From sequence record MF158045: a stretch of DNA of 64,000 nucleotides. One strand, written 5' to 3'. The stretch's first letter is position 1. Each line of letters begins with the position of its first letter. Below are positions 2,944-54,409 of this stretch, piece by piece. The position numbers and the translations under genes are program-made. Under the pieces are notes generated by a model. It searched no databases. It was not told the DNA's origin and worked only from the letters and a program-made list of their open reading frames with translations. Origin of the DNA: Shigella phage Sf22.

Positions 2944-5040
2944 TTATCCTTGAACGAACTTGTAAGGCATGTTTGTAATATCTATGCAAGACGCAATAAT
3001 TCCAAGAGATGATTCTACTTTCTGTTTAACATTTGATGAAACAAATGATGCAAAGTCAACTCTGTCTTCTATTTCAATATCACCTGTCATTGCAACTACT
3101 TCGCCAGTTTCCATTAAACGGTCACCGTCATAAATTACCGATTCGGTGAGTTCTTCGGTGGTCATAACTTCAGCTTGAATGAGTTTTGTATTATTAGACG
3201 TGGTTCCGTCATTATTAGAAGCATCAGTTATTTTATTAACTTTGACCATCAATCCGCGCGGTAGAATAACTTCGGCTTCTGTTGCTATTCCGAGACTTCC
3301 TGGATATACAACATTAACTTTATGAGCTCCATCAATTGCCCATCCTATTTGAACTTTAACGTATTCAGGATTTTCTTTATACGCTCTTATTTCGTTTGGA
3401 TTAATAGTTATTCCTTCTTCATTTTTATCAACTGTTAATTCATTGCGAGCTTCTGGTTCTAAAAGACCAATACCAGCATGTGTAATTCCAAAACGTCCAA
3501 AAATGATAGGAGTTAAAGAAGTAGATACAAAATTTCTGAAATAGAACACTTTATTTTTAACTAGTGCTTCGTATATAGGAGCAGTCATACTTTGAGCACG
3601 ATAAACTGTAATGCCTTCCGGTATACGGTCACCATTTTCAAAAGCTGAATCTAAATTATTTATAGCAGATTCAATTTCTTTTTCACTCATTATATCATAT
3701 CGTTCTGGATTGTAACGACCTAAAAGAAGATTATTGATGTCTGTATATCCTGAACCACAATACTCTCTAATGCCGCGCTTTTGTGATGGAGTATATTTAG
3801 AACCATCACGGGCAATAGTAATATCAATCATTGGACCTGCACCAATTCCGGAAAAGCTATAAATCATTCGTTTGAGGAATTTAGTTTTTGCTGCATTCCA
3901 GGCATTTTTAGTTATTTCTCCCCAGACTTCATCTGGTTGCCCTTTACGAGTTTTATTATGTTTATCAAGCCAATTATCTTTATATTCTTCAAAGAATTTA
4001 TTAACAGCTGCTGCGTATTTCTCTAAACATTTTATTGAAGTAGTTGGTTCATTTTTGATTGCGTTAAAAATTACATCTTTAATTTTTTCGGAAACTTCAT
4101 CAACCTCACTTTTTGAAAAGAATTTATAGTCATAGTGAAGTTCATTCGCAGTTCCTTCGGCAATAATTTTTGCTGCCTTAGTTTTAGAAGCTAATGAATT
4201 AATTCCAAGCTTCATTTCTTCTGCTTCGGGAATTAAAGGAGCGGTAGCAGGTTTATTGAAATTAGCTGCGGTAGATTCATACTTCTGGAATAATTCACTT
4301 TCAAATCTAGAAGACTCTAACGATTGACTTTGTGCAATTGCTCTACGGGAAATTTTAACTTTAACGATTACAGCTTGGTCAGAACGTTTATCGTTTTCTT
4401 GTGCAATAGATGCTGCAATTGCCTCATTTTTAGTTACTTGAGCCCCAGTATCTTTATTGATATAAACATCACCGACCTTCGATTCAACTTTAGTAAAGAG
4501 CTCGGTACTAATTTCCGGAACTCCTGGAATGTCTTCTAGTGATACATTTTTGCGATGTATAAGAATATATGCATACTTTTTATCATAATCCCAGAGTTCC
4601 TTAAGAAGGACGTATCTGCCACCTGAACGACTACGGATAAGTCTATCAGCAATAACTTGAATTTGTCGAGCTTGACCAGCGGTTTTAGACTTAAGAATAC
4701 GGAGCATACAGGCATCAATTTTATACTGACGCATTGTTTGCATTGCAACAGTAAAAACTGAATTGATATAATTAATTGGGCTTGGACCAAGACCTTTTAA
4801 TTTAGCAATTGAACCTTTAGCAGTTAATGTAAAAGGAACAATATGCATCATTTTATCGCCCATCTTTAAATCGCGATTAGTATCACCTCCAGATGTATAG
4901 GTACATAAACGAAAGCCTGGCTGTTCAATTGCATCATCAACGTGAACTGAAAAAATTTGCGGTATTTTCTTCTTTGGATTTAAGTTTGTAATCGGAAGAG
5001 TAGTATCTTCGTCAAATAATTCTGTAATAAGTTCCATCAT
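2944..5040 (-). CDS. alt: Alt-family mono-ADP-ribosyltransferase, paralog B (698 aa)
   Basis: First ~230 aa closely similar to paralog A; central region diverged; catalytic motifs retained (VYRAQ, FVSTS, TEAEVILPRG). Which copy is the T4 alt orthologue cannot be decided without alignment. Confidence 0.85.
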   Translation of the reverse strand: MMELITELFDEDTTLPITNLNPKKKIPQIFSVHVDDAIEQPGFRLCTYTSGGDTNRDLKMGDKMMHIVPFTLTAKGSIAKLKGLGPSPINYINSVFTVAMQTMRQYKIDACMLRILKSKTAGQARQIQVIADRLIRSRSGGRYVLLKELWDYDKKYAYILIHRKNVSLEDIPGVPEISTELFTKVESKVGDVYINKDTGAQVTKNEAIAASIAQENDKRSDQAVIVKVKISRRAIAQSQSLESSRFESELFQKYESTAANFNKPATAPLIPEAEEMKLGINSLASKTKAAKIIAEGTANELHYDYKFFSKSEVDEVSEKIKDVIFNAIKNEPTTSIKCLEKYAAAVNKFFEEYKDNWLDKHNKTRKGQPDEVWGEITKNAWNAAKTKFLKRMIYSFSGIGAGPMIDITIARDGSKYTPSQKRGIREYCGSGYTDINNLLLGRYNPERYDIMSEKEIESAINNLDSAFENGDRIPEGITVYRAQSMTAPIYEALVKNKVFYFRNFVSTSLTPIIFGRFGITHAGIGLLEPEARNELTVDKNEEGITINPNEIRAYKENPEYVKVQIGWAIDGAHKVNVVYPGSLGIATEAEVILPRGLMVKVNKITDASNNDGTTSNNTKLIQAEVMTTEELTESVIYDGDRLMETGEVVAMTGDIEIEDRVDFASFVSSNVKQKVESSLGIIASCIDITNMPYKFVQG

Positions 5041-10752: not shown

Positions 10753-11088
10753 TCACTTATAAAGACACGGAATAGCTTTATAATGACAGGTAACGAATTT
10801 TTGTTTAATTTCTTTTGGCTGCTTAAGACCCAGAGCTACAAAAGGATGCGGAACATTTCGAATTTGACCAACTGGAAGAGAAGTCAAATCACCAACTTCG
10901 CAGAAACCTTCAGGAACATCAGGACCGACAGAGTGAACTACACACAGTTCAGGAACTTCACCTTGAACACGTTTACCGATGATAAGTCCTGATTCTGTAA
11001 CTTCTTCATCACCGGCTTGTGCAGGTTCAGAAACTAAAATAACATATTCACCGACAGCACGAATTGGTAGCTGTTGTACTTCAGACAT
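10753..11088 (-). CDS. 31: Co-chaperonin (GroES analogue)
   Basis: 111 aa, [22 protein letters not shown]... matches recalled T4 gp31. Confidence 0.93.
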
Positions 11089-50755: not shown

Positions 50756-52576
50756 CTACTGGCTCATCCATTCTTTACGAAGGTCAGCATTATCTCCCAT
50801 GAGCATTTCAAAAAGCTCTTTCCAATTCTCAGGAAGTTTAACAACATCATATACTGGATTTTGAATCATCTCACGATATTCAGATTTTTCCAAAGAGCCA
50901 AGTCCCTTAATATAACGGATGCTATGTTTAGGTAGAGCATCTTTGGCACTCTCATATTCAGCGACTGTATAAAACCATTCTTGTTTTTTACCGACCTGAG
51001 CGATGATTACAGGAGTTTTGACAAAGCGAATTCGTCCTTGCTCAAACAATTCTGGCCAATTACTAAAAAATCCGAGCAGAGAAGGATAAATGCTTCCTAA
51101 ACCATCATGGTCAGCATCAGTCATAATAGCAATATTATGATAATTCAAGTTTTCAGCTTTTTCACCGAGAACTAGACCAGTGATTGCGCAAATATCAAAT
51201 AATTCTTTGTTTTTAAGCATATCTGCATAAGACATACCCCAACTGTTGAGAACTTTACCACGCAATGGATAACCACCGTGAAGTTCTTTATCACGAACAT
51301 CAATAAGATATCCGATAGCCGAATCACCCTCAGTCAAGAAAAGAGTAGTATCAGCATCTTTACCGCAAAGATTCGCTTTGATATGTTTATGAACTTTAGC
51401 TTTAGAAGCCTTTTTAGCTGCTTTAGTTTCAGCTGCTTTTTCTGCTGCCAATTTACGGGCCAAGGCAGCTTCAATAATCGGCATTAAAATTGCTTCATTA
51501 TTTAGAATAGCGCGTGAAATCTTTTTAGCATCAAGCTGAATATGACTACGAATTTCGCCAAATGGAGAAGTCAAACGCTCTTTAGTTTGAGAATCAAATC
51601 GCATGTTTTTCATATCACGGACAAACATAACGATAGTCAAACATTCTTTGACACGTGCTTTAGTTACATCAATTTTGAACTTACGTTTGATTTGTGGAAT
51701 AAGGTCTTCACAAATATCATCCATAACACAGTCAATGTGATGGCCACCATTCTTAGTGTGAATGTTATTCACATAAGTTAATTGGCGAAATCCATCCGGT
51801 GAACGACCAACCGCAATAGAACAATTTTCTTGTTCTTGAACAATAGCATGTTCATCATACTGTCGTGCATATTTCTTAAAATTGCCCTGAACCTTTTTAC
51901 CATTAAAGGTAAATTGAATATCAGGATAAACTACTGCAAGTGTCTGGAGACGATCCAGTGTAATGTCAAGATAAACTTGGGACAGCTCATTAGTTTCAAA
52001 TGACATAAAATCTGGAATGAAAGTAACACGAGTTCCTTTCCATTTTCCAGGAATAGTTTCCCAGGATTTATTTTCCATGCCATTTGAACAACGAACTACA
52101 ATATTATTTTGACCATCGCCAGTTTCACCGACAAACATCACAGAAAAAATGTTAGTTAAACTAGAACCAACACCATTCATACCACCGGTGACACGTTCTT
52201 TATCATCACCAAAGTTACCACCCGCTTTTGGAATAGTCCAAGCAGCAACTGGACCAGGAATTTCTTCACCGGTAGGTGTTTTAACCATCGCTTGTGGAAT
52301 ACCACGACCGTTATCTTCAACTGTTACTTGATTGTTTTTGATAGTAACATTAATTTTATTTGCGAATTTAAACTTAGTACGAATACCTTCATCTACTGAG
52401 TTATCGATAATTTCATCAATAAGCTTAACAAGACCAGGTACATACTGAACACTTTCCCATTTACCAAACAGAAAGCGCTCATGCATTTCATTAGCAGAAG
52501 AGCCAATATACATGCCGCTACGCTTTTTGATATGTTCAATATCGCTCAGAATTTTAATTTCATTCTTAATCATCAC
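50756..52576 (-). CDS. 39: DNA topoisomerase II large (ATPase) subunit, single uninterrupted ORF
   Basis: 606 aa GyrB-like protein; continuous, so it covers the regions that T4 splits into genes 39 and 60. Confidence 0.93.
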   Translation of the reverse strand: MMIKNEIKILSDIEHIKKRSGMYIGSSANEMHERFLFGKWESVQYVPGLVKLIDEIIDNSVDEGIRTKFKFANKINVTIKNNQVTVEDNGRGIPQAMVKTPTGEEIPGPVAAWTIPKAGGNFGDDKERVTGGMNGVGSSLTNIFSVMFVGETGDGQNNIVVRCSNGMENKSWETIPGKWKGTRVTFIPDFMSFETNELSQVYLDITLDRLQTLAVVYPDIQFTFNGKKVQGNFKKYARQYDEHAIVQEQENCSIAVGRSPDGFRQLTYVNNIHTKNGGHHIDCVMDDICEDLIPQIKRKFKIDVTKARVKECLTIVMFVRDMKNMRFDSQTKERLTSPFGEIRSHIQLDAKKISRAILNNEAILMPIIEAALARKLAAEKAAETKAAKKASKAKVHKHIKANLCGKDADTTLFLTEGDSAIGYLIDVRDKELHGGYPLRGKVLNSWGMSYADMLKNKELFDICAITGLVLGEKAENLNYHNIAIMTDADHDGLGSIYPSLLGFFSNWPELFEQGRIRFVKTPVIIAQVGKKQEWFYTVAEYESAKDALPKHSIRYIKGLGSLEKSEYREMIQNPVYDVVKLPENWKELFEMLMGDNADLRKEWMSQ

Positions 52577-52625: not shown

Positions 52626-52643
52626 AAAGGCCCGAAGGCCTTT
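52626..52643 (-). terminator. Stem-loop AAAGGCC-CGAA-GGCCTTT
   Basis: Same hairpin as 5074-5091; lies between the lipoprotein ORF stop and the gene 39 start. Confidence 0.4.
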
Positions 52644-52912
52644 TATTTAAAACGAATAGTTGAATCCTTAAAGAACAGCCCAGAACATACTGTTCCTTCT
52701 ACTTTCTGCCCAGTAGGTCCAACAGCACGAAATCCAGTATGTTGGAAATCATTTTCAGAGCAACCAAACCAATTATATCCAGTGATTTCAATATTAGTAA
52801 AACCGCTTGATGACAAAATTTTGGTTGCATTATCAGCATCAGTACATCCTGCTAAAGACACTGCTAATACTAATGCTGCGATAGAACGATTAATATATTT
52901 CATAATTTTCAC
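52643..52912 (-). CDS. Predicted lipoprotein (89 aa)
   Basis: Signal peptide with lipobox LAGC. Confidence 0.55.
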   Translation of the reverse strand: MKIMKYINRSIAALVLAVSLAGCTDADNATKILSSSGFTNIEITGYNWFGCSENDFQHTGFRAVGPTGQKVEGTVCSGLFFKDSTIRFK

Positions 52913-53280
52913 TTAAATTTAATGGCTTGAAGAAGACTAATAATTCTCAAGCGACTTCTTTCATCTTTAACTGTAAAAGAAAGAGGGTCACCAGATTTCA
53001 TAGTAATAGTACATTCAAAATCAAAATCTTCGGAAACTTCTTTGAAGAAGTCAAATTCTTCATCATAAATTAGAACATTACTCTGACAACTATGAAGAAT
53101 TTTTCCATCATTTCCGGATGCTGTACTAATCATTGTAACATTATGACCTTTCATATCTTCAACGATAAATTCGCTTGTAGATATTACAGCATTAATAGAA
53201 CCATTCCTATAAATAGCAGACATTAGATATTTCTTTTCTTCGCCTTTGCGAATACGATACTTCTTACCGATTTTAAACAT
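52909..53280 (-). CDS. Hypothetical protein (123 aa)
   Basis: ORF track. Confidence 0.5.
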   Translation of the reverse strand: MFKIGKKYRIRKGEEKKYLMSAIYRNGSINAVISTSEFIVEDMKGHNVTMISTASGNDGKILHSCQSNVLIYDEEFDFFKEVSEDFDFECTITMKSGDPLSFTVKDERSRLRIISLLQAIKFK

Positions 53281-53282
53281 AA

Positions 53283-53459
53283 TTATCCTTTAAGTAAGTC
53301 GTAAAATCCACCATTCACATGCTTAGGAGCAGAAGGCCGACGAATAGACAGACGATGACATTTAGGGCAAACATCATTTTCTCGTTCAGAAATCTTTTTA
53401 ATTTTTTCATATTCATGCCCGCAATCTTCGGATTGGCATTTATAATCATACATTGGCAT
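53283..53459 (-). CDS. Small zinc-ribbon protein (58 aa), FmdB-like
   Basis: Hand-translated MPMYDYKCQSEDCGHEYEKIKKISERENDVCPKCHRLSIRRPSAPKHVNGGFYDLLKG; two CxxC pairs; below the ORF-track cut-off. Confidence 0.5.
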   Translation of the reverse strand: MPMYDYKCQSEDCGHEYEKIKKISERENDVCPKCHRLSIRRPSAPKHVNGGFYDLLKG

Positions 53460-53461
53460 AA

Positions 53462-53887
53462 TTATTCCTTAAAGTGAGCTTTCAACATCTGATACAAGGA
53501 CCATGCCTGTTCATTATTTTCAATAGTAACTTTCATGACTGGGAATTCTGTGAAATCTTCTATTTGTTCTTGCTCTTTCTCTTCCTGCTCTTGCTCTTCA
53601 ACTGCCTGATATGGATTTTCCACTTCATCAAAGAACTCGGCTTCGTTAGTAGAGAGCCAGATAAAGTTTTCGTCAAGGATATCACCATGTGTTGCATATC
53701 CAATTGTGCCAGTAAATGACATAATTTTAGTAGGACGACCAAGATGGTCAACATCTAAAATTTTAAAAGGATGCATACCTAAACGTCGTGCATAAATTCC
53801 ATTATCAGTATGGTCTTTAATAAAAGCTTCTTGAGCTTGTTTATTTTTAAATTGATACCATTTATTAACTTCAAATTTAATAGCCAT
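53462..53887 (-). CDS. Hypothetical acidic protein (141 aa)
   Basis: ORF track; Glu/Gln-rich central linker. Confidence 0.5.
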
Positions 53888-54102: not shown

Positions 54103-54208
54103 TACAATTTCCTCATTAATTAAACATTGGAGCGATACGTTTCAGAAGAGTAGCAGCACCTTTAGCGAATTTTACATCATGAAAAACAGTTTCTTCTTCT
54201 GTAACAAC

Positions 54209-54385
54209 TCAAACTTTAATATTTTCACAATCCCAATTTTTACGAACAATCTTCAAAAGCTGCAGTAAATCTTTACATTCAGCAATATCGATAACACATC
54301 CACGAGAATCTTCCATTATCGCACGATAACCGTAAGCCATACCATAATCATTAAAAGATTGCTCGATGATAATTAAGTTTTCCAT
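54209..54385 (-). CDS. Hypothetical protein (58 aa; start moved to MENLIIIEQ)
   Basis: Conserved leader TTGGAGAATAAAATG. Confidence 0.45.
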   Translation of the reverse strand: MENLIIIEQSFNDYGMAYGYRAIMEDSRGCVIDIAECKDLLQLLKIVRKNWDCENIKV

Positions 54386-54409
54386 TTTATTCTCCAAGTT
54401 GTTTTCTGT

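Follow-up and report, generated by a model that had tools for sequence, protein, structure and literature searches.

The gene most closely related to the locus described here is 39.2 (nwgI) of the phages T4 and RB69. In T4 it encodes "a 58-amino acid peptide" (PMC5153855). Two secondary accounts of work by Ang and Georgopoulos (2012, Genetics 190:989–1000) indicate that its product, Gp39.2, shifts host GroEL towards an open, co-chaperonin-binding state and suppresses groEL/groES alleles, that growth on some groEL mutants depends on it, and that T4 lacking 39.2 fails to grow on specific groEL mutants (PMC5153855; PMC4396842). As far as these accounts go, the GroEL phenotype comes from mutant groEL hosts or from overproduction, so that the role on wild-type hosts is subtle.

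The second described system is Ruc (Rv0991c) of M. tuberculosis, in which residues 1–49 form a CxxC-N17-CxxC ribbon that holds one zinc through Cys thiols, as measured by ICP-MS (PMC7448276). The disordered C-terminal half of Ruc is required for its oxidation-activated holdase activity, the 1–49 fragment being inactive. Ruc interacts with DnaK and is co-regulated with groES/groEL as part of the HrcA regulon, and Ruc genes adjoin dnaK, groESL and hrcA in many phyla; across the family, the disordered hydrophilic C-terminal region is 7–61 residues long (PMC7448276). The pull-down table S2 of the same paper lists GroEL1/2 as well as DnaK, and was not counted as evidence, the meanings of its columns not being visible (PMC7448276). 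The paper makes no mention of FmdB, Pfam or phage (PMC7448276), and we found no paper in the searchable literature that links Gp39.2 with Ruc.

The window analysed here is a stretch of 64,000 nucleotides from Shigella phage Sf22 (sequence record MF158045). It belongs to a T4-like phage of the genus Tequatrovirus: over the 1.7-kb region around the ORF, identity is 99.2% with Escherichia phage JLBYU22 and 90–97% with hundreds of Tequatrovirus genomes. Positions 53283–53459 hold, on the minus strand, an ORF of 58 codons plus stop that runs from ATG to TAA and encodes exactly the peptide quoted in an initial annotation made from the sequence alone; the plus-strand translation of the same positions is nonsense. 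This ORF is the orthologue of T4/RB69 39.2, an already known gene of which the T4 and RB69 versions have been studied experimentally. The gene was reportedly first selected from RB69, in work attributed to Ang and Georgopoulos and dated 2012. Nor is the gene overlooked, being annotated in many relatives: its nucleotide sequence is identical to JLBYU22_6, a "zinc ribbon domain-containing protein", and hundreds of phage records carry it, usually as "zinc ribbon" or "FmdB-like transcriptional regulator" and in other cases as "gp39.2" or "hypothetical protein". Its absence from the ORF track is probably most simply explained by a length cut, 58 residues being below the usual 60-residue minimum.

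The orthology is clear from both sequence and position. Over the 58 residues, identity is 81% to T4 (modern assembly) and to T6, and 90% to RB69-like Mosigvirus; the 11 of 58 positions that differ from T4 Gp39.2 include none of the invariant columns described below. The ORF is flanked by goF and gene 39 in the same slot as T4 39.2. Krischvirus and Muldoonvirus have a different upstream gene (dexA or cef), and gene 39 is still downstream.

As the initial annotation had observed, the gene is tightly packed among genes on the same strand; the gaps are of 2 nt on either side. Its upstream neighbor goF (53462–53887, 141 aa; minus strand, like the other genes and motifs given below unless stated) is transcribed in the same direction, and 2 nt separate the goF stop codon (53462–53464) from the ATG of 39.2. 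The Shine–Dalgarno sequence AAGGA (53466–53470) is 6 nt 5′ of this ATG, within the last goF codons, and the goF/39.2 junction, AAGGAATAAT(T), is the same in T4, T6, Mosigvirus and Dhakavirus. Downstream, the ATG of a gene for a 123-aa goF-like protein (52909–53280) follows 2 nt after the 39.2 TAA; T6 has this gene and T4 does not. We note that both goF and the 123-aa gene match phrog_622 (E 1e-40 and 9e-30, respectively). BLASTP of the 123-aa protein against goF gave no alignment, and the two are therefore distant goF-like paralogues at most, despite their common phrog_622 match. We also note a near-identical junction, AAGGA(A/T)TAATTATG, consisting of Shine–Dalgarno sequence, stop, 2 nt and start, at both ends of 39.2 (53275–53291 and 53457–53473, minus strand). 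This repeated arrangement suggests that translation of goF, 39.2 and the next gene may be coupled.

In the wider region, the minus-strand genes run from motB through an interrupted small ORF, then cef, goF, 39.2, the 123-aa goF-like gene and the 39.1 lipoprotein gene, to gene 39. The interrupted ORF (54116–54397), between cef and motB, is the counterpart of JLBYU22_9, a 93-aa hypothetical protein; it has an in-frame stop at codon 63, amid a cluster of substitutions, and a 62-aa ORF (54209–54397) remains. T4 has no gene of this type between cef and motB. The 39.1 homologue (52643–52912, 89 aa), with its signal peptide and the lipobox LAGC, is a predicted lipoprotein. Gene 39, encoding the topoisomerase II large subunit, is unsplit (50756–52576, 606 aa), whereas T4 has in its place the gene 60/mobA insertion and translational-bypass arrangement; the listed GTG start of gene 39 is probably one codon 5′ of the true ATG. 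A promoter and terminator scan of 50.5–57.5 kb gave counts equal to the shuffled expectation, and one near-consensus site in it, upstream of motB (55047–55019), is suggestive only.

The ORF is a real gene under purifying selection. It scores 45.8 bits against Pfam PF09723 (Zn_ribbon_8; cut-off 34.4, E 6.3e-12) and 44.2 bits against NCBIfam TIGR02605 (FmdB family; cut-off 31.3, E 1.4e-11), so that the profile search proposed in the initial annotation places it above both curated cut-offs, and it also matches phrog_1076. A tblastn search with the 58-aa ORF matched 875 phage records, with query coverage of at least 80% in 856 of them. Orthologues were compared from Tequatrovirus (T4, T6), Mosigvirus, Dhakavirus, Krischvirus, Roskildevirus, Moonvirus and Muldoonvirus, together with two Certrevirus homologues. 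All the homologues fetched, from these seven Straboviridae genera and Certrevirus, have an uninterrupted frame of 57–65 codons with an MP.Y.Y.C start, so that the frame is maintained in relatives. Calculated pairwise for the closer genera, dN/dS is 0.02–0.15, and substitutions fall mostly at the third codon position (9/4/20 by codon position in the comparison with T4). Two overlapping ORFs, one of 44 aa (minus strand) and one of 52 aa (plus strand), were taken as chance, since it is the 58-aa frame that the pattern of substitutions matches.

The homologues from Certrevirus (Vequintavirinae) phages CR9 and F5M2A (segment positions 1201–1377) have 33–35% identity and a canonical C-x2-C first knuckle, and sit directly after a gene for a MazG-like pyrophosphatase, a context unlike that in T4-like phages. 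They show that 39.2 also occurs outside the T4-like phages. Apparent bacterial homologues (Enterobacter hormaechei; a Plesiomonas MAG) lie on contigs of about 150 kb, which matches the size of Certrevirus genomes, and are most likely phage sequences under bacterial names.

The T4 reference record requires comment, since NC_000866 still carries 39.2 as a 45-aa product. The missing C-terminus (KH..NGFYDLLKG) is present in another frame, and in comparison with a modern T4 assembly the record contains a 1-nt insertion and several clustered substitutions (segment positions 3640–3880). The shortened product is apparently the result of a 1-nt insertion error in the old record: modern T4 assemblies encode the full 58 residues, in agreement with the published length (PMC5153855). 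The adjacent gene 39.1 is annotated in the same T4 record from an internal Met (65 aa), with the signal-peptide part in a separate 24-aa ORF, which is probably a further error in this stretch.

The protein begins MPMYDYKC, the N-terminal MPxYxYxC pattern that the initial annotation had recognized, and has Cys at positions 8, 13, 31 and 34. The same annotation described two CxxC pairs, but only the second knuckle, C31-PK-C34 (53358–53369), is of this type; the first, C8-QSED-C13 (53421–53438), is C-x4-C, where relatives have C-x2-C, C-x-C or C-x2-H. The knuckles are separated by 17 residues (14–30). The two-residue insertion in the first knuckle is common to Tequatro-, Mosig- and Dhakavirus, and the C-x4-C form is a variant that involves no loss of ligands. 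Between the knuckles lies the motif K22-I-S-E-R26 (KISER; 53382–53396), of which I23, E25 and R26 are invariant and K22 at least 90% conserved in the phage group; judged from this conservation and from its absence in bacterial Ruc, KISER is a candidate for a phage-specific interaction surface. The ribbon is followed by a second conserved motif, S43-APKHVNGGFYD54 (53298–53333), in which A44, P45 and G51 are invariant and which is probably a flexible tail.

At the N-terminus, each of M1, P2, Y4, Y6 and C8 is either invariant or conserved to 90% or more. In an alignment of 11 phage sequences the invariant residues are M1, P2, Y4, Y6, C8, I23, E25, R26, C31, C34, A44, P45 and G51. In a broader alignment of 49 clusters, which reaches bacterial relatives, Y4, C8 and C34 remain invariant, and conservation is 90% or higher for M1, P2, Y6, C31 and P45. 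Conservation of the cysteines, which the initial annotation had proposed as a check, is borne out in a form that allows for histidine: four Cys/His ligands are kept in 48 of the 49 homologue clusters, 10 of them with a Cys-to-His swap. The first knuckle is C-x2-C in 29 of the 49, C-x2-H in 10, C-x-C in 5, C-x4-C in 4 and a single Cys in the remaining one. Metal sites can accommodate His in place of Cys as a ligand, and the swaps fit such a site. The two β-hairpin knuckles (C8/C13 and C31/C34) thus most likely hold one zinc ion, a prediction based on the conservation of the ligands and the Cys-to-His swaps, and on the zinc bound by Ruc as a homologue.

The AlphaFold2 model, built with the homologue alignment, contains four short strands (residues 3–8, 16–20, 28–30 and 37–40) with a mean pLDDT of 76, and as a prediction is what would be expected of a zinc ribbon. 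Residues 41–58 form a low-confidence tail with pLDDT 54–63. The best structural match among viral models (BFVD) is T4 Q01434, the 39.2 product, followed by phage FmdB-family proteins. A Foldseek search against the PDB gave no match with E < 0.29 and returned generic small zinc ribbons only. Sequence matches of the family profile in the PDB were to C2H2 zinc-finger arrays, through their short YKCPECGKSF repeat, and were rejected as not homologous. No solved structure of a true relative was found by the PDB profile search or by Foldseek.

We consider it likely, by orthology with T4 Gp39.2, that this orthologue of 39.2 acts on host GroEL and not on DNA, as a zinc ribbon that favors the co-chaperonin-binding state. 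The effect on GroEL is taken from the literature on T4, as summarized above. In the mechanism that we propose, this early-region gene encodes a 58-residue single-domain zinc-ribbon protein, in which two knuckles would hold one zinc and be followed by a short flexible tail with the sequence SAPKxVNGGFYD. The protein, made early in infection, would shift host GroEL to an open state able to bind either GroES or the phage co-chaperonin Gp31, and GroEL-dependent folding of phage proteins would thereby be made robust to variation in the host chaperonin. In T4, the classic client of GroEL/Gp31 is the major capsid protein gp23. The window also contains gene 31, encoding the phage GroES-like co-chaperonin (10756–11088; found by tblastn and scoring 30.8 bits on Pfam Cpn10, where the cut-off is 21.1); some 42 kb separate it from 39.2, and in the published model its product is the functional partner of GroEL. 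We infer that Gp39.2 binds GroEL directly; KISER and the SAPKxVNGGFYD tail would be the obvious candidates for the contact residues.

The relationship of this group to Ruc was established by profile comparison. A database match named "conserved serine rich protein [Mycobacterium tuberculosis]" carries PF09723, and its N-terminus is the translation of the cloning and mutagenesis primers of the Ruc paper, with Cys at positions 8, 11, 29 and 32; this verifies it as Ruc, which scores 53 bits on Zn_ribbon_8. Alignment with hhalign of a phage-only profile against a profile of 15 actinobacterial Ruc orthologues gave a probability of 97.1% and E 7.8e-11 over 56 columns, including the G-GFY motif, and paired the phage tail with the Ruc sequence KGSGFYRTD. 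Pairwise identity between the phage protein and Ruc is only about 26% over 35 residues, and at the position of KISER Ruc has AFTDDAL. On these alignments, the phage 39.2 group is homologous to Ruc. The tail that follows the phage ribbon, of about 9–17 residues and with low pLDDT, is at the short extreme of the 7–61 residue range of the Ruc family, and its sequence is conserved rather than degenerate. The linkage to chaperone genes (dnaK, groESL, hrcA) was not found at this locus, where the neighbors are goF, cef, motB and gene 39. Both of the experimentally studied family members that we found, T4 Gp39.2 and Ruc, act in protein folding, which places them in the same area of biology.

This homology raises the question of whether the phage protein might itself be a redox-activated holdase like Ruc, in which oxidation would free the zinc and expose a client-binding surface. 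The homology extends over the full length, including the N17 spacing and G-GFY, and both proteins are above the PF09723 cut-off. However, Ruc needs its long disordered C-terminal half, without which the 1–49 fragment is inactive (PMC7448276), whereas the phage protein ends some 9–17 residues past the ribbon; moreover, its KISER motif is absent from Ruc. We therefore regard a holdase activity as unlikely. Given that the phage protein lacks the long tail of Ruc, a modulator of GroEL, rather than a holdase in its own right, is the reading that we prefer.

The name under which the gene is commonly annotated, and which the initial annotation also adopted, is that of an FmdB-type regulator. The family assignment is upheld by both profiles, whereas the regulatory function is not. 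If the protein were a transcriptional regulator, it would act on DNA or on host RNA polymerase in early infection. Such a role would agree with the annotation in RefSeq and PHROGs, with the early-gene surroundings of 39.2 (motB, goF, cef), which act to alter transcription and RNA metabolism in the host, and with weak, non-significant fold matches to the RNA-polymerase-binding ribbons RbpA, RpoP/Rpb12 and YdjO-SigA (E of at least 0.29). Against this, no DNA-binding domain was found, the sole profile above cut-off being Zn_ribbon_8 (Ogr_Delta reached 14.8 bits against a cut-off of 26.3); the Foldseek matches to the PDB are not significant; and the family members for which we found experimental data, T4 Gp39.2 and Ruc, act in protein folding. 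The regulator name comes from the label of the FmdB family and presumably goes back to a putative assignment for Methylophilus FmdB, and we found no experimental basis for it. A regulatory role is thus very improbable in our view, and the label "FmdB-like transcriptional regulator" is probably misleading. We therefore propose to replace this product name by "GroEL modulator Gp39.2/NwgI (zinc ribbon)".

That the ORF is a chance frame or a decaying remnant without function is scarcely conceivable: it is short, belongs to an AT-rich genome with an abundance of chance frames of 30–60 aa, and is shown as a 45-aa form in the T4 RefSeq record, but its HMM E-value is about 1e-11, it is under purifying selection and conserved across genera, and the T4 shortening stems from a 1-nt insertion and clustered substitutions that are missing in modern 58-aa assemblies. 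The gene call itself matters little, since hundreds of T4-like genomes already carry the annotation and a function has been published for the orthologue in T4. Of wider interest is only the homology of Gp39.2 to Ruc, a modest but testable result in a family that is very large and poorly understood.

A further system for comparison is the redox-regulated zinc chaperone Hsp33 of E. coli. Hsp33 is a much larger protein, with its zinc centre at the C-terminus, and to our knowledge no sequence or fold relationship is to be expected. It is a functional analogue only, in which a zinc-thiolate centre is coupled to chaperone function, an analogy drawn by the authors of the Ruc paper for their own protein (PMC7448276). 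In comparison with the FmdB family as defined by PF09723 and TIGR02605 ("CxxC_CxxC_SSSS"), the phage protein has its ribbon at the same N-terminal location, with the same spacing of the Cys pairs, and scores above both cut-offs, but it has the two-residue insertion in the first knuckle and no low-complexity Ser/Gly-rich tail.

The phage protein and Ruc both start at Met with MPxYxYxC and have four Cys, 17 residues between the knuckles and G-GFY after the ribbon; both are above the PF09723 cut-off, and each has links to the Hsp60/Hsp70 folding network. They differ in the first knuckle, which is C-x2-C in Ruc and C-x4-C in the phage protein; in KISER, which only the phage protein has; in the C-terminal region, where Ruc has about 50 disordered Ser-rich residues needed for holdase activity and the phage protein has almost none; and in their partners, Ruc interacting with DnaK and Gp39.2 being linked to GroEL. 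One possible reading of this pattern, which we put forward tentatively, is that the Gp39.2 proteins arose in phages as a tail-less branch of the Ruc family of bacterial chaperones, serving as a docking module for Hsp60/Hsp70 machines. If so, the large PF09723 family of "FmdB-like regulators" would consist of chaperone-network proteins in which the ribbon and G-GFY form the docking module, and the phage would have kept this module alone in order to bias GroEL, possibly in a redox-sensitive manner through the zinc-thiolate site.

The closest correspondence is with T4 Gp39.2 (NwgI) and RB69 39.2, with which the ORF shares its genomic slot, its length of 58 residues and all the invariant residues. 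The differences from T4 are the 11 substitutions and the 123-aa goF-like gene that follows the ORF here and is lacking in T4.
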